Shown here: one piece after another, positions 3,019 through 17,367 of the stretch
Position numbering within the stretch: the first letter of the stretch is position 1
Layout of the letters: every line of letters begins with the position of its first letter
Virus record (IMG/VR): IMGVR_UViG_2606217110_000021
Strand: one strand, 5' to 3'
Length of the DNA: 17,367 nt
Origin: a virus
Lineage: Duplodnaviria > Heunggongvirae > Uroviricota > Caudoviricetes
Translations under genes and position numbers: made by a program
The notes under the pieces: generated by a model
Seen by the model: only the letters and a program-made list of their open reading frames with translations
Told to the model about the DNA's origin: nothing
Databases searched by the model: none

Positions 3019-3561
3019 TCAAGCCATTTTCTCAGCAAATGATTCACGCATGGGAATATATAGGGCATACTCAGCAACAGCTAACCAATTAGCAATCCGT
3101 TTTTCGCATGTGCTAAAACACCACTCTGGGTGTGCATCATTTAGCAATTCAGCCATTTTGCGCTTAGTCATCCCCCGCCCTTCATAGCGTTGCCGGAGAA
3201 TGCAAATCAATCCTGGATGCTCTGCCAGCACCTCACTTATGACTCGATCAATACATAACGCCTCTGCATCAGTACAATGCGCCAGCCAGCTCTTTTGCTT
3301 GCCGTTGATCATCTCTCGCAAAAACGCTTCCAGCTCAGCTTTCTCTATTCCCGCTTTTTTCATTCTGCGCAGGGCTTCATTAATGGCTGTTTTCGTCAGT
3401 TTTTTGGATGCCAACAACTGATTGAACATATTCCCTGACCTGCCACCGCCAATATACGACCAGCGCCCCCACATACGTAGTTTTCCCTGAATCCAGACAC
3501 TTTCCAGCGTGGTGAGGCGAAGGTGTTCTCCGCTTTTTCCTGTATTCGTTGGGTAAATCAT
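3019..3561 (-). CDS. putative late-gene antiterminator Q-like protein
   Basis: 180-aa ORF immediately upstream of the lysis region, overlapping the upstream gene by ATGA. Cys-containing C-terminal half. The assignment rests mainly on synteny with lambdoid late-control regions. Confidence 0.6.
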   Translation of the reverse strand: MIYPTNTGKSGEHLRLTTLESVWIQGKLRMWGRWSYIGGGRSGNMFNQLLASKKLTKTAINEALRRMKKAGIEKAELEAFLREMINGKQKSWLAHCTDAEALCIDRVISEVLAEHPGLICILRQRYEGRGMTKRKMAELLNDAHPEWCFSTCEKRIANWLAVAEYALYIPMRESFAEKMA

Positions 3562-3848
3562 AAATGACCTTTCTTTCTCCAGATTTCTTGTGTGCGAAAA
3601 ACCCCTTCAGCATGCATCAGGCGCAATTCTTCTTTGGTGTAATCGCTGGTTTTTACCCGCCCGTCGATTAGATCGTGGCATGAGCTACAGGCTATCGCCG
3701 CCTGCATATCGTGTGGTTTTGTCGCTGTTCCGCACGTCCCCGCCAGCCTGTAATGCGCCAGCACAGAGGTTTCGGGATTGTGATTGCAGTAGCCAGGGAT
3801 TCTGATCTGGCACATCTGGCCTTTAGCCGCTTTACGTAAATTCACCAT
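3558..3848 (-). CDS. DUF1364 (YbcO-like) putative nuclease
   Basis: 96 aa with CQIRIPGYCNHNPETSVLAHYR and IACSSCHDLID motifs, recalled from the prophage YbcO family. Translationally coupled to the flanking genes. Confidence 0.75.
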   Translation of the reverse strand: MVNLRKAAKGQMCQIRIPGYCNHNPETSVLAHYRLAGTCGTATKPHDMQAAIACSSCHDLIDGRVKTSDYTKEELRLMHAEGVFRTQEIWRKKGHL

Positions 3849-4447
3849 TACGCAAACTCCAGTAGTTGTGCGGCCACATTTTCAACTTCCTCCTGAGAGG
3901 AGAATTTACGAAACAGAATCCAGTTCCACAGCACATTCAGTACAGATTTATAAACCTGCTGAAACTCGACTTCGTCCATATTCGCAAAAGCGATGGATTT
4001 TGCCCGACGCCCACGGCTACCGTCCGGATAAATATGCTCGGTGTAAAATCCGGCCTGAATGGTTACCCACTCGCGGAAAGCCTCAAACGACTTTAGCAAC
4101 GCCGTATCCCGGGTTCTACGAGTCGCAACGGTGTTAAGGTATTGCTCTGCGGCATCACTCAGGGCTGGCGTGTGTTCCCGACCAACTGATTCGCACAGGT
4201 AATCAACGAAACCAGACAGCAGTTCTCGTTCGCGAGGCGTGATCGCCCCACCGACCGGAGTCCAGTAATCGAATCCCAGTTGCAGGAGTTTGAAAAAACG
4301 CTTGTGGAATGCGTAGTTACGCACACGCTTAAAGTCTGCGTGTATCCACTCACCTATTTTGATTTGATGCAGAAAATCGCAACTCTCCGGCGTCGCCGGG
4401 AGAAGTAAACCAGAAGAAGTTTGTTTGACCAGTTGTATATGCGCCAT
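3848..4447 (-). CDS. DUF1367-like phage protein (nin-region type)
   Basis: 199-aa ORF; its stop overlaps the downstream start. Family assignment is from memory of prophage YdfU-like proteins and is tentative. Confidence 0.65.
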   Translation of the reverse strand: MAHIQLVKQTSSGLLLPATPESCDFLHQIKIGEWIHADFKRVRNYAFHKRFFKLLQLGFDYWTPVGGAITPRERELLSGFVDYLCESVGREHTPALSDAAEQYLNTVATRRTRDTALLKSFEAFREWVTIQAGFYTEHIYPDGSRGRRAKSIAFANMDEVEFQQVYKSVLNVLWNWILFRKFSSQEEVENVAAQLLEFA

Positions 4448-4727
4448 TTCTCAATCTCTCGATGGCGCAGCGCAGCAGATGCCAGTTGTTCAGGCTGACG
4501 AATAAAGTATAAATAAACTGGCTATGGTGTAAAGCCCCACATAGCATGAACAAACACTACATATCAAATAGCTGGTACAAGGATAGAAATACGACATTTA
4601 TTATTAAAAACGATTAGATAAATTACATTTTAATGTTATGCAAAAGTTCTTTTTTATCATAACATTTCAATAAAAGCATTACAGATGCAATCATCCCGTC
4701 ATCATCAATTATTTAAGGTGGTTAAAC

Positions 4728-4814
4728 ATGGAAAATAACAAGTTCGCACATCTCGCTCCTTTTTTATCCGTAATCCTTTTCGCTTGTTGTTTTATATGGG
4801 CATTATTTTTATAA
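4728..4814 (+). CDS. candidate 28-aa small hydrophobic membrane peptide
   Basis: ATG at 4728 preceded by AAGGTGG at 6 nt. Translation MENNKFAHLAPFLSVILFACCFIWALFL gives a short polar N-terminus followed by one roughly 20-residue hydrophobic stretch. It is below the ORF-track size cut-off. Confidence 0.35.
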   Translation: MENNKFAHLAPFLSVILFACCFIWALFL

Positions 4815-5205
4815 AGTAGCCACATGATAAGTTGCTGGAATCATATTTCCCACTCAAGTCATTAACATTTGATAAGATATATCTAAAAGGACGCCTTTAC
4901 ATTATTTATGTGTATATAATTTATTTATATACACAGTAAAGGTATCCTGGGAAAATATTTATCGTTAAAAAATACATCATAAATAATTAAGCTGAAATTT
5001 CAGAACACAACTAATACACACAATAAGGTTCAGTAACAATAATCTATGTGGACTACATCGAGATTTTTTGATTAAACTTTAATAACTTATTCCTAACACA
5101 CAGAATGCATAAACTAAAAGTAAAACAAATAGTTATACGAAAAACAACCATATTTATTATATCTTCTCCTCTAATCAACATATCAATTATGTGTTTCATA
5201 ACAGC

Positions 5206-5238
5206 TTGACATAACCCTCAAAAACACGCATTTATAAT
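5206..5238 (+). promoter_or_regulatory. putative sigma70 promoter for the DUF1971 gene
   Basis: Consensus TTGACA at 5206-5211 and consensus TATAAT at 5233-5238. The spacer is 21 bp, which is longer than optimal, so this is tentative. Confidence 0.3.
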
Positions 5239-5260
5239 GCATGTTTTTGAGGAGGTGGTT

Positions 5261-5599
5261 ATGACACACAAGAGAATTCCTAAAGATTGGGTAATCAAAC
5301 GCTCAACTCCGTTCTTCACAAAAGAGAACGTACCTTCAGCGTTATTAACACATCATAATACAGCAGCAGGTGTTTTTGGGCAGTTGTGCGTAATGGAAGG
5401 CACTGTAACATATTATGGTTTTACTGATGAGAATGCTACTGAACCGGAGATAAAAGTAGTCATTAATGCTGGCGCTTTTGCAACAAGCCCACCACAATAC
5501 TGGCACCGTGTTGAACTAAGCGATGATGCTCAGTTTAATATTAACTTTTGGGTCGCTCCAGACTTCTCGGGCGAAAAAGTCTATAGCACCAAAAAATAG
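5261..5599 (+). CDS. DUF1971 / YeaR-like protein (TehB N-terminal domain family)
   Basis: The ORF track starts at 5237, but ATG at 5261 has GGAGG at 5 nt. Motifs RSTPFF, VFGQLCVMEGTVTYYGF, INAGAFATSPPQYWHRVE and FNINFWVAPDF match my recollection of E. coli YeaR. Confidence 0.75.
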   Translation: MTHKRIPKDWVIKRSTPFFTKENVPSALLTHHNTAAGVFGQLCVMEGTVTYYGFTDENATEPEIKVVINAGAFATSPPQYWHRVELSDDAQFNINFWVAPDFSGEKVYSTKK

Positions 5600-5628
5600 A
5601 TGATCATATTAAAAATGCTTTAACAGTC

Positions 5629-5665
5629 AGACCCGGCAGGGCTATCCCCGACGGGTCTCATTTTT
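5629..5665 (+). terminator. intrinsic terminator after the DUF1971 gene
   Basis: Stem AGACCCG/CGGGTCT with inner GGG/CCC pairing, followed by CATTTTT, 30 nt after the stop. Confidence 0.6.
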
Positions 5666-6074
5666 GTAAATATATTGGTTCTACATTGACAGGAGACTTC
5701 AATCATAAGAAGTAATCTGAATACTTGAGCAATAAATTTACTTAAGATTAATGAGCGCACCTTGCCGGACAAAGATAAACCAAGGTAACACCTTTTTTCT
5801 AGCCAGTATGTAATCAATCAGAAAGCCGCTCCATAAGAACAACAGCAAGACAATAAATTGCCATTACAGCCGCAATAGCCAGCGCACATTTGAGAACCAG
5901 CACGACACCCCCCTGTATTAGACGCACACCAGTCCTGATAAATATAAGGCTGTCTCGTCAGTGATTCAATACAACTATTGGGTATAGTTTCTGTGATTTT
6001 ATTCTGTAGAAATGGAACACAACAACCAGTCACCACCAGCACTTCTTTAAATACGCCAAGTCCGACGCAAGCTA

Positions 6075-6140
6075 ACCTTCTAGTCCGCTTTGAGCGAGAA
6101 GCGGAAGTCTCGGTCTTATTATGTTCTGAGACTAGAAGGT
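6075..6140. repeat. nested and overlapping inverted repeats (structured element)
   Basis: Outer 11-bp perfect inverted repeat ACCTTCTAGTC (6075-6085) and GACTAGAAGGT (6130-6140). Inner hairpins CGCTT/AAGCG (6086-6103) and AGTCTC/GAGACT (6106-6133); the second overlaps the outer right arm. Confidence 0.5.
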
Positions 6141-6202
6141 ATTTCTTAAGGATGATTATTCGTTACGCCTACATATAATAGAAACAGAAATTTAAAGTTT
6201 AA

Positions 6203-6232
6203 ATCTAGGTATCTGGCTAATGATACCTAGAT
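6203..6232 (-). terminator. hairpin downstream of the HEPN-like gene (probable terminator)
   Basis: Perfect 11-bp stem ATCTAGGTATC/GATACCTAGAT with an 8-nt loop, about 40 nt past the stop at 6270. The flanks are A/T-rich but lack a clean U-tract. Confidence 0.45.
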
Positions 6233-6269
6233 TGAATTTGAATCATATTTTGTTAGTTAACTTTAACTA

Positions 6270-7637
6270 TTATCTTTCTCCAACATCCTCTTCTAAAACA
6301 TGATCTATCTTATCTACAGGAAGATTATCATACTTAGAAAAATCAAAACCATCGGGAAGTTTATTTTTTGCTGCTTTTAATATTCTTATTGAATCGTTAC
6401 CGTTTCTAGAGCGATTTCGCCAATAACATTGATTGTTTTTGTTTGCTCCTTCAAGCAGGGTTAACATTTGCTCGCTTGAGTAATTAGCCAAGTCTTTGTC
6501 AATAAATCTATCAAAATATATATCGGCTCGTTCGAAATCAGCACTATTTATAAAACAAGCAATTCCAAAATCGCGATACTCTGATTCCAAACCTAATTCG
6601 CTGCAAACATTTTTAAAAATTGCCAAATGTTGCTGGTTGAGAAAATTCCCATTATCCCCGTATTTTTTGTAATATTTTTCAGATATTCTTTTTGTTACGC
6701 GATTAATGTGTTCCTCCGGCGATTCAGATATAAAAAAGGCTATTCCAAAATAAGATATGTTATCTTTTATAATAGGCTTTATGAGTTCTTTTACTGAATC
6801 ATCCAAGGCGTTATATATTTCTTTCTCCATGGAAATGAACTCAATTAGTGCCTTAATTGCATCATGGTTATTGGAAATATTGGAGTAATAAGCAGTTTCT
6901 GCTTTAACCGAGTCCACCATGGCTTGCCTGTCTTTTTCAAATATCAGTTTCATAGCTCTGATATTTATCTCTCTATTTTCTAATGGCTTAGCTTCTTCAG
7001 ATCTAAACGAAAACTTCCACAACCCCTTGAATATCTTAACTAATACTTCCTTGTTTAAAGATTTGAAATATTTAACATCTAAGTATTTTTTTAGCGCGTT
7101 ATCGGAAGGGAATAGGTCCTTTACCTTTTCTAGATCTGCAACAAATGTGGAAAGTATTTTTTGAGACATAAATGGCGGCTTGCTTAATATTACTTCTATA
7201 CTATTCCTAATGTCACTTCTAATCATTTCCTGTGTTGGCTCGAATAACGTATCTTCGTCACTTATTACGGGATGGGCAGATAAATGCCTGTGTTTTTGAA
7301 TAAGTAAAACTTTATGGTTTGAAGCAGTGTCTAATAATTGAGTTCTTTCAAAAACTCTTTTAATAAGCTCTTTTTCCCATTTAGGAGAGTAAGGATCATC
7401 GTTTTGTAGTGCTTCAATTTCTAATAATATCTTTTCCGCAACAGCATCGTTATGAACATCTCGCAGTTCTTGGAGCTTAAAAATAATATCACATACAACT
7501 ACTGACCATAGCATCACGGTAGCAGAACGGTAACAACCATTAGCATAGCTCTTATAAACCTCTTCAAAATATTTTCTAGTTCTTCTATCATAAATTTTAC
7601 TCTTCTGAGATTCTAATGAGAATATTCTAACGTCCAT
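6270..7637 (-). CDS. orphan 455-aa protein with N-terminal HEPN-like domain (Rx4H motif); candidate abortive-infection or defence RNase
   Basis: The ORF track gives 6270..7685, but the likely start is ATG at 7637 with GGAGA at 6 nt. Strongly AT-rich. The sequence [13 protein letters not shown] (nt 7272-7292) fits the HEPN Rx4-6H signature. The C-terminal ~320 aa carry no motif I can recognise. Confidence 0.8.
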
Positions 7638-7933
7638 AATTTCTCCATGAAAAATATTTAACTCAAATAATTGAATATGAATCATGTAGTCATAAATACT
7701 TCAAAATTATATTTTTAGCCCACTTAATTCATACAAAACTTCTTTAATAAACTGATTCAGGCCTCATGCATTATGCTTTTAACAAACTATCCTAACCTTC
7801 ATAGTGTAAATCTTGATGTTCAATTTTACAATACGCCAAGTTTCCGTAAATCAATGAATGCGTCGGATTTTACAATAATTTAAAAGAGATGTTGAATAGT
7901 ATCCATGAAGTGTAAGGTTAATATACCCAAAAC

Positions 7934-7957
7934 GTCCGCCTCTGGCACAAAGCGGAC
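7934..7957 (-). terminator. weak hairpin downstream of backbone gene 8026-8448
   Basis: GTCCGC/GCGGAC stem with a 12-nt loop. On the minus strand it is followed by GTTTTGGG. Confidence 0.3.
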
Positions 7958-8025
7958 AACCACGCTAGCTCTACCCTGTGCCACAAAATGTCAATTTGCA
8001 TCTGAACTAATGCACTTTAATCTCG

Positions 8026-8448
8026 TCACTTCAATAAATACCGAACATCACCCTGATAAAACGACAATATGCGCTGCATAACTTCACTCTTCCGGCACTC
8101 GCGACAGATTATGTTCTGACGCCTGTCGTAGCGACGTATTTCTCCGTCAGGTAATGACCAGATAAGGTCCGGATCAACCGCAGATGGTTTCTTCAGCTTT
8201 GCCCTTGAGAGCTTTTTACGGGCATTTTGCCAGTCCTTACGCGCCTGTTCAGACGGGAATAACCCGTAACCAGAGTTGTATACATCGCCGCTGGCAACCA
8301 GCTCTCTTGCGAGAACGCTCATCAGATATCTTGTCGCATCTGTCTTGACTTCCAGTTGCCGTAACGTCTCGCGTCCACTCCGGCGTACTAGCTCAACAAC
8401 CTGCCCTTTAATTTTTTCCCGCTCTTCCTGTGTAAAAACTTTTGCCAT
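8026..8448 (-). CDS. hypothetical phage protein
   Basis: The ORF track gives 8026..8463; the likely start is ATG at 8448 (MAKVFTQEE...) with GGAGG at 5 nt. Basic protein with a CxxC pair (ICRECRK). It abuts the upstream gene. Confidence 0.7.
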   Translation of the reverse strand: MAKVFTQEEREKIKGQVVELVRRSGRETLRQLEVKTDATRYLMSVLARELVASGDVYNSGYGLFPSEQARKDWQNARKKLSRAKLKKPSAVDPDLIWSLPDGEIRRYDRRQNIICRECRKSEVMQRILSFYQGDVRYLLK

Positions 8449-8463
8449 AAGCGCCTCCGGCAA

Positions 8464-9225
8464 TCACTTTTCCGATACAACACGGCGGGAAGAATCAGTA
8501 ATTTGTCGAACAATATCCCGGTGCTTGTTCAGCTCCCGCAGCGCGGCGCAGACTCGCTCCCACTTCTGGACATGATTTTTCGCCCGACGCAGTTCACGAT
8601 TTGCCATATGCAGCGATGGTAAAATCAGGTTATCCGCTTGCGTTTCAGTAAACGATGGCAACGACTGCACAATGTCCGCCACAGTTTCTGTTTTAATATC
8701 TTCCTGTGTTGCAGCTTCCTGTACTGGTAACGCAACACCGGCTGGCTGAGGAAAGGCTTTACCATCAGTTTCCGCTACCGATGCAGCTTTCGGCTCTGCT
8801 GGTAAATTATCGCCCGGCATGCAGTAACGAAATTTACCGTTCTGATTAACGCGAATCAGACGACCTTTACTGATTGCCATTGCCAGCGTTGAAGCCACTT
8901 TGCGTGATGTGATGCCGAAAAACGTAGCCAGTTCATCCGCCGTTTGTGGGCCACGTTGTTCAATCGTCGCAGTTAAATCGCACTCCGAAATTTTTGCGAC
9001 TGTTGCCGTGGTGGTTTCTTCCGGCAGTTCTGCCTGCTCTGGCTGTTCCTGCTGAACGTTGTTATCAGCCACGCGCCAGGTGTATACGCTTTTATCAACG
9101 AAGCCAGCCTTTTTCAGTTCCCACAGCTCGTTCAGCACTTCTTCACGACTGATATCAAGTCGCGCAGCCAGTTCTACCGACGTAGCTTTCCCCATTGCTT
9201 TCAGTGCGTCAAAAACAGTCTCCAT
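8464..9225 (-). CDS. phage protein with N-terminal winged-helix-like domain and acidic linker (DUF1627-like, tentative)
   Basis: The ORF track gives 8464..9276; the likely start is ATG at 9225 ([45 protein letters not shown]) with GGGAGA upstream. This start avoids overlap with the DnaC-like gene. Confidence 0.7.
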
Positions 9226-9247
9226 TAAATTTTTCTCCCGGTAAAAA

Positions 9248-9994
9248 TTACTTCGCAATTCCTGGCTGGACGACATTCGGACGCCAGCTCTCCCAGTTAA
9301 AATTCACCCATCGCCCGCCGTTCATGGTCATGCGATCCATAATCCGCTCGCCGAGCAATGTTTTCATGGCCTCATAGTTCAGGTTTGTCAGCATTCCCAC
9401 GCTACGCATCGACGCTGTCCGTCGATCAATAATCTGGTGCAGTACCACCTGCTCGTTTTTCGTCTCGCGCTGAATGCCAATTTCATCAAGAACCAGCAGA
9501 TCCACTTCGCACAGTTCCCGCAAAAATTTTTCGCCTGACTGCCCGTCGTCATAGCTGGCGTGGAGGGCACTCATAACATCAGCCACGGTAACCACAATCA
9601 CTGTCTGACCGTCTTTCAGCAGGCGATTCCCGATAGCTGCCGCTAAGTGATTCTTCCCGGTACCAGGTTTTCCGCTGAACGCAAAATTTGTACACCCGGT
9701 CATCAGTTCATCAGCGATGGATTTCGCCTGACTCAACGCGTATCGCTGCCCTTCGTTCTGCACCTGGTAATTCGAAAACGAGCATTTGCGGTGCAATGGC
9801 TGGATGCCAGAGCGATTCAGAATTTTTTCCACCCGCAACTGACGATTCTGACGGTTGATCTCCTCACAACGTTTCTGGCCTTCGGAAAGTTGCCACTCGC
9901 GCCACTCCGCTACCGTCTTGAATGGCGCGGTTACATGTGACGGGGCCAGTCTGCGGATACGTTCAAGAACGTCGCCTGTCGCAATATTTTTCAT
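9248..9994 (-). CDS. DnaC-like replication helicase loader (IstB/DnaC AAA+ family)
   Basis: Walker [14 protein letters not shown] and Walker B LLVLDEIG. Overall similarity to E. coli DnaC as recalled ([31 protein letters not shown]). Confidence 0.9.
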
Positions 9995-10000
9995 GGTCAG

Positions 10001-10789
10001 TTACCCCCTGAAGCCTGGCGGGATCGCACTATCCGGTAACGAGACGGTGTTAACCTGTCGGAGTAACGTCTCAGGTCGAACACCTTTCGGCGCGAACAAG
10101 CCCTGGTATTCGTTGGCGATGCTGTGTCGAATCACCTGCTCAGGTGAAAAACCCTGCTGGCGGAATTTTTCCAGCTCCCGTATCGCCCCGTTAGCGCCCT
10201 GCTCCGTTCGAATCGGTTTTCGCAATGCCTGCCTGAACTGAACCCACTCATGCCAGAGTGTTTCCGGCAACCAGTCAGGCAGCTCGATAGCCTCCGGTTC
10301 GAATTTTTTAGACGCTCGTTTTTGGCGAGGGGGATTTAGGGGGAGATAAGTATTTATATCTTCCTCTTTCTCTTCCTCTGGTAACGCTTTTTGATCCGTT
10401 TTTGTAACGCTGGCAGCGTTACCTTTTCGTTTCAGTTCTCGTATTTTTGTTACTCTCTCGTTTGTAACCGCCCGTTTTTTAGAGCTTTTCCCGTTATGGC
10501 GCTCAAAGTTAGGAAGCGACAACACACCATTAGTTTCGACCAGCCATCCAACCTGAATTAACGCATCAGCAAACCCAGCCATAAAAGTGATGCGATCTAT
10601 TGCACTTTTTGTAACGCCGCGAGCGTTACACTCTGCGTTACCGTCTATCATTTGTTGATCCGCCCATGCCCAGAAGCGAATGACTTTCCCTAATGCGGCA
10701 TCTGGATCAATATTCAGAATCTCAGCAAGCCTGAATATTTCCGGCTTATCCGGCGTAATAACTTCGAGCTTTATCCAGTTTGAAGCCAT
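10001..10789 (-). CDS. replication initiation protein, O-like / YdaU-like (DUF1376 N-terminus)
   Basis: 262-aa ORF directly upstream of the DnaC-like gene. Contains GTAACGC palindromes within its coding sequence, analogous to ori iterons inside lambda O. Confidence 0.8.
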   Translation of the reverse strand: MASNWIKLEVITPDKPEIFRLAEILNIDPDAALGKVIRFWAWADQQMIDGNAECNARGVTKSAIDRITFMAGFADALIQVGWLVETNGVLSLPNFERHNGKSSKKRAVTNERVTKIRELKRKGNAASVTKTDQKALPEEEKEEDINTYLPLNPPRQKRASKKFEPEAIELPDWLPETLWHEWVQFRQALRKPIRTEQGANGAIRELEKFRQQGFSPEQVIRHSIANEYQGLFAPKGVRPETLLRQVNTVSLPDSAIPPGFRG

Positions 10790-10822
10790 TTGTTTTCACC
10801 TTGTAACGCTCGCAGCGTTACA
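10380..10822. repeat. iteron-like palindromes GTAACGC(N3)AGCGTTAC x3 plus half-sites (candidate origin or operator)
   Basis: Palindromes at 10403-10422, 10611-10629 and 10803-10821, about 200 bp apart. Additional GTAAC(G/C) half-sites near 10381, 10464 and 10635. An A/T- and polypyrimidine-rich stretch lies at 10344-10380. Confidence 0.6.
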
Positions 10823-10866
10823 TTTAACTGATACCGAACAAAACAGTTCGGTACGATTAATTTCAA

Positions 10867-11289
10867 TCAATGCACTACGACAGAATCGCTAGGAGAACCG
10901 CCGCCGCTGAAATGTGCTTTACGGTAAACGGCCTGGACTGCATCATCATGCGCATCAATTGCCGTACTCAGTGCATCCTGTGCCGCCAGTAATGCACGGC
11001 GTTCCAGGGTATCGAAGATGCAGAGTCGGTGACGCAGCTCGCGAGGAAGAATTGCCAGAACCGCAGGGATCAGTTTCTGAATTTTTTCCCTTTGCGCATT
11101 CGTTTCACCTTTCAACCAACGATGATAGATATTCTGCTGATTGTTCCAGTCCTTGCCTGGTACCAGGGGCAATTCGCCGCCCCCCTGGCGCAGATATTCT
11201 TCAGTAATTGCGTTAGCGACCCACGCCTGCCCTTTTTCGGCTGCCAGGGCTAACAACACTGATTCGATGTGCTCATGCTTGATTTTCAT
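10867..11289 (-). CDS. YdaT-like protein (CII-analogue of Rac-type immunity regions)
   Basis: 140 aa, matching the length of Rac YdaT as I recall it. Start overlaps the upstream Cro-like stop (ATGA). Confidence 0.75.
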   Translation of the reverse strand: MKIKHEHIESVLLALAAEKGQAWVANAITEEYLRQGGGELPLVPGKDWNNQQNIYHRWLKGETNAQREKIQKLIPAVLAILPRELRHRLCIFDTLERRALLAAQDALSTAIDAHDDAVQAVYRKAHFSGGGSPSDSVVVH

Positions 11290-11540
11290 GAATCAACTCC
11301 CATCAGCTTTTTCGTAGTAGTTTTATTTCTGCCAATAGTTAAAATTGCATCGGCAGAAAATAATCCGTTTGATGCATGAGCGATTTTTTCAGCGTAATTT
11401 GTTTCGCCGGTATATTCTGTGCGAGGCAATTTTCCGTTATCCATCCATTTGTAGATTGCTCTTTGGCTGACACCACAAACGTCGGCCACAACAGAAACGC
11501 GAACAGTTTTGATTACATCTTCAAGTGTTTTCTGGTTCAT
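11286..11540 (-). CDS. YdaS-like Cro-type HTH regulator
   Basis: The ORF track gives 11286..11612; the likely start is ATG at 11540 (MNQKTLEDV...) with GAGGGTG at 5 nt. HTH-like segment VADVCGVSQRAIYKW. Divergent from the repressor gene. Confidence 0.75.
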   Translation of the reverse strand: MNQKTLEDVIKTVRVSVVADVCGVSQRAIYKWMDNGKLPRTEYTGETNYAEKIAHASNGLFSADAILTIGRNKTTTKKLMGVDS

Positions 11541-11619
11541 ATCACCCTCACAATGTGAACTTTGAGTACATGCTATAACAGAACTGACAGTACATTCAAG
11601 AGCGAATATCATTGAACTT
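11541..11619. promoter_or_regulatory. divergent promoter/operator region between Cro-like and repressor genes
   Basis: 79-bp intergenic region with palindrome TCACAaTGTGA (11548-11558) and two direct AGTACAT repeats (11565-11571 and 11589-11595). Confidence 0.5.
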
Positions 11620-12039
11620 ATGGTTCATGAAGATAAAGCGCGTAAAGAGTTCGCCAGTAGGCTTGCGCTAGCCTGTGAAAACGCTGGTTATGAACAACAT
11701 GGAAGGCAGGCAGAAATTGCCCGTCGAATGAAATTAACACCAAAAGCGGTTAGCAAATGGTTTAATGGTGAAACAATTCCTCGCCGAGAGAAATTAAGGG
11801 AATTAGCAACACTCATTGGAACAACACCAACCTATCTTTTGGGAGAGGATACAGAAGAAAGTGGACAGATACGTTTCTATCAGGAGTTAAATCCAAGACA
11901 AAAAATCATCATTGACCTTCTGGACGAGCTCCCTGACAGTGAGACAGATGAACTTTTAAAAACTCTTGAGGAGAAAAAACAGAAGTACAATGCAATTTAC
12001 GAAGAGTTAGCACGAAAGAAAAAACAAAAAGCCTCTTAA
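11620..12039 (+). CDS. RacR-like prophage repressor (XRE-family HTH)
   Basis: 139 aa. HTH segment GRQAEIARRMKLTPKAVSKWFNGETIPRREKLRELA. Divergent arrangement with the Cro-like gene. No obvious SD, so possibly leaderless. Confidence 0.8.
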   Translation: MVHEDKARKEFASRLALACENAGYEQHGRQAEIARRMKLTPKAVSKWFNGETIPRREKLRELATLIGTTPTYLLGEDTEESGQIRFYQELNPRQKIIIDLLDELPDSETDELLKTLEEKKQKYNAIYEELARKKKQKAS

Positions 12040-12471: not shown

Positions 12472-12627
12472 ATGCAAAAAATCGACCTCGGCAACAACGA
12501 ATCCCTGGTGTGCGGCGTGTTCCCCAACCAGGATGGAACGTTCACTGCCATGACGTATACCAAAAGCAAAACATTTAAAACCGAAACTGGTGCGCGCCGA
12601 TGGTTGGAGAAGCACACAGTAAGCTAA
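12472..12627 (+). CDS. ydaF: small protein, YdaF-like (51 aa)
   Basis: ATG at 12472, 51 codons (MQKIDLGNNESLVCGVFPNQDGTFTAMTYTKSK...). Converges on and overlaps the sieB stop by 4 nt. Matches Rac ydaF as recalled. Confidence 0.55.
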   Translation: MQKIDLGNNESLVCGVFPNQDGTFTAMTYTKSKTFKTETGARRWLEKHTVS

Positions 12628-13112
12628 CGATTAAAACGTCTACTCCTGCTGTTCCAGAATAACTTCATAAAATGGGAGTATTTTTCGGTGACAAGATAAT
12701 AAGAACAGTTTGCGCTATCACTCTGATGTTGAATGATGCCCTTCCGTTCTAATTTTTTCATAACCGGGTTACGGCAAGGAGAAGTGATAATAAGATTTCC
12801 TGTTTTAAGGAAATCTTTAAATACAGCGATTTCTTTCTCAGATAAACGAAGCAATACTCGTTGCTCTGGTAGTAATGAATAATGCTTTTGAATATGTGCT
12901 CGCAATCTTGAGAAGGAAATGGCGACCACGAAAGAAAAGGCAAAAACGATAATCTGAAAGAGCCAAGGTATTTCAGTATAAGCATTGAATGCGGCAGTAA
13001 ACTCTTTCGGTATCAGCCAGAGAGTGAGACCAAAAATGATAATCGTATACATAAGTCTTTCGAGTGGCTCGTTAGCAAAAAGTTTCAACAATGGAGTAAA
13101 TACATCCAACAT
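12624..13112 (-). CDS. sieB: superinfection exclusion protein B
   Basis: The ORF track gives 12624..13235; the likely start is ATG at 13112 (MLDVFTPLLKLFANEPLERLMYTIIIFGLTLWLIPKEF...), giving 162 aa with hydrophobic membrane segments. Matches Rac/lambda SieB as recalled. Confidence 0.75.
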   Translation of the reverse strand: MLDVFTPLLKLFANEPLERLMYTIIIFGLTLWLIPKEFTAAFNAYTEIPWLFQIIVFAFSFVVAISFSRLRAHIQKHYSLLPEQRVLLRLSEKEIAVFKDFLKTGNLIITSPCRNPVMKKLERKGIIQHQSDSANCSYYLVTEKYSHFMKLFWNSRSRRFNR

Positions 13113-13553
13113 ATCAATAACTCTCAACTGTAAGGGTATTGAAATGTTAACACAAGCTCTCGCTGTAGGGGTATAGCCGAGACCACCGAAGTCCGGAGGT
13201 GGTGAAATAAAACCGGGCACAACACGAAGGCGCATTTCCGATATCCATAAAGAGTCGGTCTTGTCTGTTAAATTTAAATGGTGGGAGTGCGCCTCCGGTT
13301 GTAAATAACGACATTGCTGTGTGTAGTCCTGGCGGCATCAGTTTTTTTCTTGAAGTTCGGCTGATGTCCGCCCTTTTTAAAGTGAATTTTGTGATGCGGT
13401 GAATGCGGCTAAGCGCACGTGGCACAGTTAAAAGTCATGTTAGTCCTTATTGGTTTGGGTGGGAAAGCCGACTGTAATTGTTAACTGGTTGCAGTCACCT
13501 GGAGGCACCAGGCACCGCATCAACAAAGTTCATTTGTAAAAATGGAGATAATT

Positions 13554-14396: not shown

Positions 14397-15272
14397 ATGA
14401 GCACAAAACCACTCTTCCTGTTACGGAAAGCGAAAAAATCATCCGGTGAACCTGACGTCGTCCTGTGGGCAAGCAACGATTTTGAATCGACCTGTGCCAC
14501 TCTGGACTACCTGATCGTTAAGTCAGGTAAAAAACTGAGCAGCTATTTTAAAGCTGTTGCCACGAATTTTCCTGTCGTTAATGACCTGCCCGCTGAAGGT
14601 GAGATCGATTTTACCTGGAGTGAACGCTATCAACTCAGCAAAGACTCCATGACATGGGAACTAAAACCGGGAGCAGCACCAGACAACGCTCATTATCAAG
14701 GCAATACCAACGTCAACGGCGAAGACATGACTGAGATTGAGGAGAATATGCTAATCCCAATTTCTGGCCAGGAACTGCCCATTCGTTGGCTTGCTCAACA
14801 CGGCAGCGAAAAACCGGTAACGCACGTTTCACGCGACGGACTCCAGGCATTACACATTGCTCGGGCTGAAGAACTACCGGCTGTTACTGCCCTGGCTGTT
14901 TCCCACAAAACCAGCCTGCTCGACCCGCTGGAAATTCGCGAACTCCACAAACTGGTTCGTGACACTGACAAAGTTTTCCCTAATCCTGGTAATTCAAACC
15001 TGGGACTGATAACTGCTTTTTTCGAAGCATACCTGAACGCTGACTACACCGATCGAGGACTGCTGACAAAAGAGTGGATGAAGGGTAATCGTGTTTCACA
15101 CATCACTCGCACGGCTTCCGGTGCTAATGCTGGCGGCGGAAACCTCACCGATCGCGGCGAAGGTTTCGTACACGATCTGACGTCACTGGCGCGCGACGTA
15201 GCCACTGGCGTACTGGCCCGTTCAATGGATCTGGACATCTATAACCTTCATCTGTCAGCGCCAATGATATAA
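14397..15272 (+). pseudogene. recE: recE (exonuclease VIII) 5' fragment, truncated by IS insertion
   Basis: The ORF begins [46 protein letters not shown], matching the RecE N-terminus as recalled. The reading frame leaves RecE-like sequence after ...DIYNLH (codon at 15249-15251) and terminates 7 codons later inside the IS left end. Confidence 0.65.
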
Positions 15273-15353
15273 GACAGTAATTCACCATTTGGATTGTCCG
15301 CTCCACCCAACATGTTGTTTCCTTAAGGTTCCTACACCACAAAGGGAACACTC

Positions 15354-17320
<1,967 letters not shown>

Positions 17321-17367
17321 TGACCAATAGCGGACATTAAAAATGGCGAAAAACGGCCAATAATCTT

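Follow-up and report, generated by a model that had tools for sequence, protein, structure and literature searches.

Does the AT-rich gene on the minus strand of this 17,367-nucleotide phage sequence (the whole stretch is hereafter called the window) encode an orphan HEPN-type RNase with a role in abortive infection, as a first-pass annotation made from the sequence alone had proposed, or a defence protein that is already known, and how is it embedded in the phage genome that carries it? The open reading frame spans 6270..7685 and encodes 471 aa when counted from the first ATG, while the ATG at 7637 gives a protein of 455 aa followed by a TAA stop. RefSeq annotates this latter start for the identical gene (WP_001703208.1). 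The closest homologues are mostly 455 aa long as well, and the PDB construct described below begins at the same residue; a longer version of the reading frame is annotated in an older GenBank record. The 455-aa product with its own Shine-Dalgarno sequence, as initially described, was thereby borne out, as was the strong AT-richness of the gene: the coding sequence has a GC content of 33.0%, compared to 44.4% for the window, and is contained in a 3.5-kb low-GC stretch (4501-8000, 33.8% GC).

6270-7637, minus strand: coding sequence of DARNA/PD-T7-3/‘Dandelion’, 455 aa plus stop (open reading frame list, PADLOC, identity to the PDB and ECOR30 sequences)
7642-7646, minus strand: Shine-Dalgarno sequence GGAGA, 4 nt 5' of the ATG (direct sequence reading)

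Identity of the encoded protein

The product was matched over its full length by the PADLOC profile for PD-T7-3 (PDLC04108; E=3e-168, 558.5 bits, residues 5-440 against profile positions 3-429 of 432), and a sequence search of the PDB returned 9wxf_A, from a 12-chain entry named ‘Dandelion’, with 455 of 455 residues identical. Two separate PDB entries, 9wx2 (‘Dandelion-hepn’, residues 1-158) and 9wwz (residues 156-455), were also 100% identical. Using tblastn, an open reading frame of the prophage P2-EC30 in Escherichia coli ECOR30 was found to encode a product 100% identical to the window protein, and at the DNA level window positions 6082-7983 aligned to positions 65-1966 of AJ512676.1 (the Z-region of P2-EC30) with 99.2% identity over 1903 nt. 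ECOR30 is the strain from which PD-T7-3 was cloned (contig QOXP01000001, open reading frame of 1368 nt, labelled ‘HEPN’ in Table S2; PMC9519451). PD-T7-3 was isolated by Vassallo et al. in 2022 as a defence against T7 and T-even phages (PMC9519451) and was renamed DARNA in a 2026 preprint by Puteikiene et al. (10.64898/2026.02.22.705581). Residues named in that preprint, F6, N33, K69, R98, R117, H122 and K201 as well as K204, E347, F368, D372, Q403 and W406, all occupy identical positions in the window protein.

The gene is thus almost certainly DARNA (ssDNA-Activated RNase), synonymous with PD-T7-3 and the ‘Dandelion’ of the PDB, a single-protein abortive-infection defence that here is cargo of a lambdoid prophage of the Rac type; it is the experimentally studied gene itself, beyond a mere relative of it. 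As membership in PD-T7-3/DARNA is given by identity, the protein is already known: its defence phenotype dates from 2022, its mechanism was reported in the 2026 preprint and its structures have been solved. The proposal of a single-gene abortive-infection or defence RNase is supported by this identity to a characterized system, and the sequence-only reading had rightly picked out an abortive-infection nuclease of the HEPN type whose C-terminal region is a sensor. The label ‘orphan’, on the other hand, did not hold, with 314 homologues found at E<=1e-3. Nor did the suggested membership in Abi_2, DUF4145 or ApeA-like families: at E<=1, the only Pfam match was to DUF6559, below threshold, and the only PADLOC match was to PD-T7-3. 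No significant domain was detected in Pfam and NCBIfam scans, where the matches to DUF6559, Prp and DAHP synthase were sub-threshold noise, and a literature search for ‘Dandelion’ together with HEPN and phage returned no paper on the PDB name. The RefSeq label is still ‘hypothetical protein’ and there is no Pfam or NCBIfam model, so annotation pipelines keep flagging the gene as unknown. For the protein, the value of the present analysis is confirmatory, and the window teaches nothing new about its biology.

The HEPN domain and its catalytic motif

7161-7637, minus strand: N-terminal HEPN RNase domain, aa 1-159
7272-7289, minus strand: catalytic Rx4H motif R117-H-L-S-A-H122 (translation and conservation)
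7383-7397, minus strand: loop aa 81-85 (DPYSP) between helices a4 and a5 (occluding role according to the preprint)

The RHLSAH motif lies where it had initially been placed, at residues 117-122 (nt 7289-7272). In composition-matched shuffles of the protein, Rx4-6H occurred in 78% and Rx4H in 40%; the bare Rx4-6H motif is not beyond chance, and its meaning comes only from its conservation. We therefore turn to an alignment of the window protein with 75 full-length homologues (76 sequences in total) from Gammaproteobacteria, Myxococcota, Bacteroidota, Firmicutes and Patescibacteria, with identities from 91% down to 33%. R117, H122 and P123 were invariant in the 76 sequences and H118, L119, S120 and A121 were each at least 95% conserved, while in the loop P82 was found in 72/76 and S84 in 64/76 sequences. 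The HEPN domain was more conserved than the C-terminal domain (mean identity 60% vs 39%).

The first-pass annotation had named a HEPN fold in the structure prediction and conservation of the R and H among homologues as decisive for its proposal. Both were found: the predicted structure is an all-helical HEPN fold with a motif-bearing helix, and the two residues are invariant as described above. The protein belongs to the HEPN superfamily by motif conservation and fold. According to the preprint, HEPN dimers form a composite site in which the two H122 residues are about 8 Å apart by cryo-EM, and H122A served as the catalytic-centre control in cleavage assays (10.64898/2026.02.22.705581). The frequency of Rx4-6H in shuffled sequences and the lack of a significant domain in Pfam and NCBIfam could be taken to mean that the motif is a chance occurrence in a helical protein without RNase activity, but this is refuted by the conservation, the fold and the published biochemistry, and we give it practically no credence.

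The C-terminal sensor domain

6273-7160, minus strand: all-helical C-terminal sensor domain, aa 160-455 (PDB 9wwz, aa 156-455; AF2 model)
6414-6536, minus strand: stretch contacting ssDNA (‘CT’ motif), with F368, D372, N402, Q403, Y405, W406 and N408 (contacts according to the preprint)

The AF2 model of the C-terminal domain was all-helical with a pLDDT of 94.3. A Foldseek search of this domain against a PDB library without 9wwz gave no match at E<=0.001, and only weak alpha-solenoid, HEAT/ARM-like resemblances were seen. In the preprint the domain is described as Pds5-like and ssDNA-binding (10.64898/2026.02.22.705581), a description with which the weak alpha-solenoid resemblance of the model appears compatible. 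Given that no significant Foldseek match was obtained and that 9wwz was absent from the library, our reading of the domain rests on sequence identity and on the Pds5 comparison made in the preprint. All seven published contact residues (F368, D372, N402, Q403, Y405, W406 and N408) occur at their published numbers in the window protein. Q403 was invariant in the alignment, D372 was found in 74/76 sequences and position 368 was F or Y in 75/76; the F368A and W406A substitutions led to loss of function (10.64898/2026.02.22.705581). The initial suggestion that the C-terminal region could be a sensor thus agrees with the preprint, where this domain of the identical protein was shown to bind the ssDNA activator.

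Published phenotype and mechanism

The mechanism outlined here is taken from published work on the identical protein, with the preprint as the mechanistic source; seen directly in the present analysis are the sequence identity, the HEPN fold, the conservation of the catalytic and ssDNA-contact residues, the solitary gene, and the prophage cassette with its promoter-like site and terminator hairpin. The preprint reports abortive infection against T3, T5, T7 and also T4, and assigns a HEPN domain to aa 1-159, with the catalytic residues R117 and H122, and an ssDNA-binding domain to aa 160-456 (10.64898/2026.02.22.705581). DARNA was found to cleave tRNA in the anticodon loop; phage escape mutations mapped to the phage SSB, and co-expression of the T7, T5 or T4 SSB led to growth arrest (10.64898/2026.02.22.705581). 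The activator was identified as ssDNA with several ‘CT’ motifs, the effect of which is enhanced by phage SSB, while direct binding between DARNA and phage SSB was not detected (10.64898/2026.02.22.705581). By cryo-EM, the protein forms a dodecamer with six HEPN active sites (R117/H122) that are occluded by the loop 81-85, and the distal C-terminal domain binds ssDNA via F368, D372, Q403 and W406; function was lost in the F368A, W406A, R98E and F6A+N33A+E347A variants (10.64898/2026.02.22.705581).

Applied to the window protein, this would mean a homododecamer in which paired N-terminal HEPN domains form six composite active sites (R117/H122), kept occluded by residues 81-85 in the resting state, with outward-facing C-terminal helical domains that would bind ‘CT’-containing ssDNA via F368, D372, Q403 and W406. 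In the uninfected cell, ssDNA coated by host SSB would fail to activate the enzyme. Upon infection, the phage SSB (T7 gp2.5, T4 gp32 or T5 SSB) would present ssDNA in an accessible form, and the activated enzyme would cut most host tRNAs in the anticodon loop, so that translation stops and the infection is aborted.

Comparison with other nucleases and defence systems

The HEPN ribonucleases Csm6/Csx1 of type III CRISPR-Cas carry a CARF domain and respond to cyclic oligoadenylate, whereas DARNA responds to ssDNA on an alpha-solenoid domain, has no CRISPR association, targets the tRNA anticodon loop and assembles as a dodecamer. No CARF domain was matched in the Pfam and PADLOC scans of the protein, and the genetic context is a prophage and not a CRISPR locus. 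Among the anticodon nucleases known from phage defence (PrrC, RloC, HepS, ApeA and HepT), to none of which the protein had a match in PADLOC and Pfam, the trigger of PrrC is the Stp peptide acting through EcoprrI, HepS responds to a tail-tip protein, and AMPylation by MNT keeps HepT under control. The trigger of DARNA is a different one and, unlike this group, the enzyme is promiscuous across most tRNAs. AbiD/AbiF (Abi_2), DUF4145 and RnlA/LsoA, likewise without a sequence-profile match in Pfam and PADLOC, have another C-terminal domain, and DARNA has neither an RNA nor a protein antitoxin. DARNA is accordingly not a member of Abi_2, DUF4145, ApeA, HEPN-MNT or Csm6. The SSB-responsive systems Hna, AbpAB and retron-Eco8 are listed in the preprint as sharing with DARNA phage escape mutations in the phage SSB; unlike these, according to the preprint, DARNA reads SSB-presented ssDNA and does not bind the phage SSB directly.

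Prophage context and single-gene status

The gene map identifies the window as a Rac-type lambdoid prophage, with the following features around the DARNA gene.

36-805: lysozyme and holin
1000-1395 and 1546-1974: two TolA-C-domain open reading frames
3019-4447: Q-like DUF1133, YbcO and DUF1367
5237-5599, plus strand: DUF1971 (TehB-family) gene, on the strand opposite to DARNA
5620-5817 and 5818-6042, minus strand: two unannotated small open reading frames
8026-11612: DUF977, DUF1627, ydaV, ydaU, ydaT and an HTH gene
10867-11289, minus strand: YdaT-toxin-family gene
11620-12039: racR-like repressor
12624-13235, minus strand: sieB superinfection-exclusion gene (Pfam SieB, 1.9e-31)
14397-15272: recE, truncated at about 15252
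15253-17367: contains an IS21-family element with istA (15354-16526) and istB (16523-17320)

Homology to other Rac-type prophages ends at 15252. A PADLOC ‘DrmD’ match on the open reading frame at 16523-17320 was rejected, as this is IstB (Pfam IstB_IS21, 1e-87) adjoining the IstA transposase. With sieB and the YdaT-toxin-family gene, the same prophage encodes two or more functions in exclusion or defence in addition to DARNA. A match to the Rfam sRNA STnc100 was also found at 2085-2271 on the minus strand (86.6 bits vs a gathering score of 47), in an ORF-poor stretch between the TolA-like open reading frames and the Q-like DUF1133 gene.

The initial description of the gene as having no co-oriented partner does not stand literally: a DUF977 gene lies 388 nt upstream and the small open reading frames at 5818-6042 and 5620-5817 lie downstream, all in the same orientation. 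In a functional sense it does stand, as the DUF977 gene and the small open reading frames are outside the swappable cassette described below and are retained in prophages with other cargo. The small open reading frames at 5620-6042 and the DUF1971 gene were considered as partners and rejected for the same reason. Only one open reading frame is found inside the cassette, also in P2-EC30, and the homologues in Pseudomonas aeruginosa, Myxococcus and Shewanella had no shared neighbour gene; the P. aeruginosa homologue sits in an island flanked by an integrase and an IS. Low GC extends to the left of the cassette (4501-6097), where the DUF1971 gene and the two small open reading frames are located, and in strain SCZE5 two IS1 copies flank the DUF1971 gene.

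If the protein were instead the toxin half of a HEPN toxin-antitoxin system (HepT/MNT-like or RnlA/LsoA-like), restrained by an antitoxin encoded next to it and not by a built-in sensor, a cognate antitoxin gene would be expected, as in HEPN-MNT or RnlAB; none was found inside the cassette and no neighbour was conserved. The small open reading frames lie beyond the cassette boundary and stay when the cargo differs, the P2-EC30 cassette holds this one open reading frame only, and the distant homologues are without a common partner gene. Moreover, PD-T7-3 has been reported to defend as a single cloned gene, and the preprint shows regulation through ssDNA binding to the C-terminal domain. We consider the toxin-antitoxin explanation highly improbable and favour a self-contained enzyme with its own sensor.

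Regulatory signals and state of this copy

7822-7850, minus strand: candidate own promoter, TTTACG, 16 nt, TAAAAT, with the -10 at 7822-7827 (consensus scan)
6202-6233, minus strand: post-gene hairpin, probable terminator with a weak U-tract (fold statistics; conserved in the P2-EC30 copy)

The candidate promoter coincides with the -35/-10 signals annotated in GenBank AJ512676.1 and falls within the fragment that expressed PD-T7-3 from its ‘native promoter’. Downstream of the gene, the perfect hairpin noted initially as 11 bp proved real, with a 12-bp perfect stem (arms 6222-6233 and 6202-6213), an 8-nt loop and a position 36 nt past the stop codon. Its fold z-score was -4.1 and 0/200 shuffles folded as well, although a terminator consensus scan of the window did not call it because its T-run is short. 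The window copy is probably expressed and active in its host.

Carriers of the gene are rare in E. coli (only 15/5426 complete genomes), and in 4 of these 15 (hits H11-H14) the match is interrupted about 3 nt ahead of the DARNA start codon. In strain 1217KP (L135 3938-5260), the one of the four that was examined, an IS3-family element is found at the break and parts the gene from its promoter; in a fifth genome, the copy covers only 63% of the query. The insertion in 1217KP may represent natural silencing of a costly abortive-infection gene. Copies can thus be uncoupled from their promoter, while the window copy is intact. The upstream breaks and the 63% copy suggest a cost and occasional inactivation, and the window prophage is itself decaying, with recE truncated by the IS21-family insertion; together, these observations speak for an intact but silent passenger, either unexpressed or unprotective against the phages that the host meets. 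Against this, the open reading frame, Shine-Dalgarno sequence, promoter-like site and terminator are all intact in the window, and the DNA has 99.2% identity to the ECOR30 fragment, which provides defence when expressed from the native promoter. A silent passenger is therefore unlikely, and an active copy is the preferred reading.

The cassette and its boundary hairpins

6082-7983, minus strand: whole 1.9-kb DARNA cassette with boundary hairpins, promoter, gene and terminator (common to the P2-like prophage)
7919-7970, no strand assigned: right boundary, inverted-repeat arm with hairpin core at 7935-7957, minus strand (inverted-repeat pair I1, motif search)
6070-6121, no strand assigned: left boundary, other inverted-repeat arm with hairpin core at 6083-6105, plus strand (inverted repeat, motif search)

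The boundary element of the cassette is the only part of the locus that may be worth following up. The ECOR30 reference copy of PD-T7-3 and the window copy have in common the protein (455/455 residues), the cassette DNA (99.2% over 1.9 kb), the promoter-like site and the terminator hairpin, but differ in location: the former is in the Z-region of a P2-like prophage, between the tail genes G and FI, and the latter is flanked by the DUF977 (ydaW-like) gene on one side and the DUF1971/nin-region genes on the other, in a lambdoid prophage of the Rac type. The presence of the same cassette in P2-like and Rac-type prophage hotspots is a small addition to the natural history of the system.

A 52-nt imperfect inverted repeat (6070-6121 and 7919-7970) brackets the DARNA segment. 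Each arm holds a hairpin with the core GTCCGCTTTG-N-GCSA-NNN-GCRGA (consensus GTCCGCTYTG-N-GCSA-NNN-GCRGA), for which 0 chance matches were expected. Alignment to the Rac-type prophage of NCTC10444 places the homology breaks at window positions 6097/6098 and 7930/7931, the latter also being the breakpoint against other prophages. In place of the 1.83-kb DARNA segment, NCTC10444 has a 2.2-kb cargo of two genes (L002 6599-8796) that was found in 211/5426 complete E. coli genomes. The cargo encodes a 333-aa protein with a weak GNAT match and a 320-aa protein with a sub-threshold match to a HEPN/RES N-terminal domain (E=1.9e-4). As neither protein has a PADLOC family, the two genes are a candidate for an uncharacterized defence pair. 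The DUF977 anchor of the slot is present in 4096 of 5426 complete E. coli genomes. The slot was also occupied in strain LF82 by an FRG-domain protein (PDC-S15, a candidate system of PADLOC), in STEC1575 by a Tmn-like protein of 1210 aa, and in an O157:H7 strain by a Dcm-type methylase together with an NgoMIV-family endonuclease and QueH; an unassigned 340-aa protein was a further occupant. In 6/6 lambdoid prophages compared, the conserved flank enters the hairpin and divergence begins at the inner arm, and the P2-EC30 cassette is bounded by the same element, annotated in GenBank as an inverted repeat.

The hairpin core was found to mark the limits of cargo at two hotspots that belong to unrelated prophage families, one downstream of DUF977/ydaW in lambdoid prophages and the other the G/FI ‘Z/fun’ region of P2. 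A scan of IMG/VR returned more than 120 loci with the core; among the 120 examined (L015-L134), 41 adjoin a DUF977 gene and 22 adjoin the start of the P2 FI gene. With one mismatch allowed, at least 57 adjacent motif pairs were found, mostly convergent and 0.5-4 kb apart, with low-GC cargo in between; at least about 24 different cargos were seen, sometimes as tandem cassettes. The IMG/VR cargos include CBASS, PD-T7-1, Tmn, PDC-S06 and PDC-S15. When 20 cargo representatives were compared to PADLOC, 7 had matches (CBASS cyclase, PD-T7-1, PDC-S06, PDC-S15 and CARF-type, and more weakly Hp2 and PDC-S33) and the remaining 13 had none. Unassigned cargos include those of L062 (269 aa), L066 (447 aa), L054 (484 aa) and L026 (531 aa).

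These observations raise the possibility, which we hold only tentatively, that the DARNA gene moves in a 1.9-kb cassette of its own, delimited by a conserved inverted hairpin element. If so, the hairpins would act as integron-like or PeSL-like sites of exchange through which defence genes pass from one phage family to another, and those 13 of the 20 sampled cargos that had no PADLOC match would be candidate new defence systems. The alternative is that the hairpins are conserved terminators that simply provide short homology. Read on the minus strand, the right boundary looks like a terminator after the DUF977 gene, with a terminator-like site at 7958..7933. In either case, the boundary hairpin may serve as a marker for further phage-borne defence cargo. 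The inverted repeats around the P2 Z-region cargo were probably described by Nilsson et al. in 2004, the source of AJ512676. Our literature searches found no description of the lambdoid DUF977 hotspot or of the shared boundary element, the nearest analogue being the promoter-stem-loop ‘mobile regulatory cassettes’ of T4-type phages (PMC2839356).

At three loci (L081 1480-2798, L017 5423-5486 and L046 466-529), two hairpins in back-to-back (-/+) orientation are separated by only 15-18 bp, and at the first of these they part two tandem one-gene cassettes (143 and 155 aa) in an arrangement resembling an integron array. The window itself contains a third copy of the core, with 1 mismatch, at 1443-1465 on the minus strand. 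As this copy lies in the gap between the TolA C-terminal-domain open reading frames, one TolA-like gene may also be cassette cargo.
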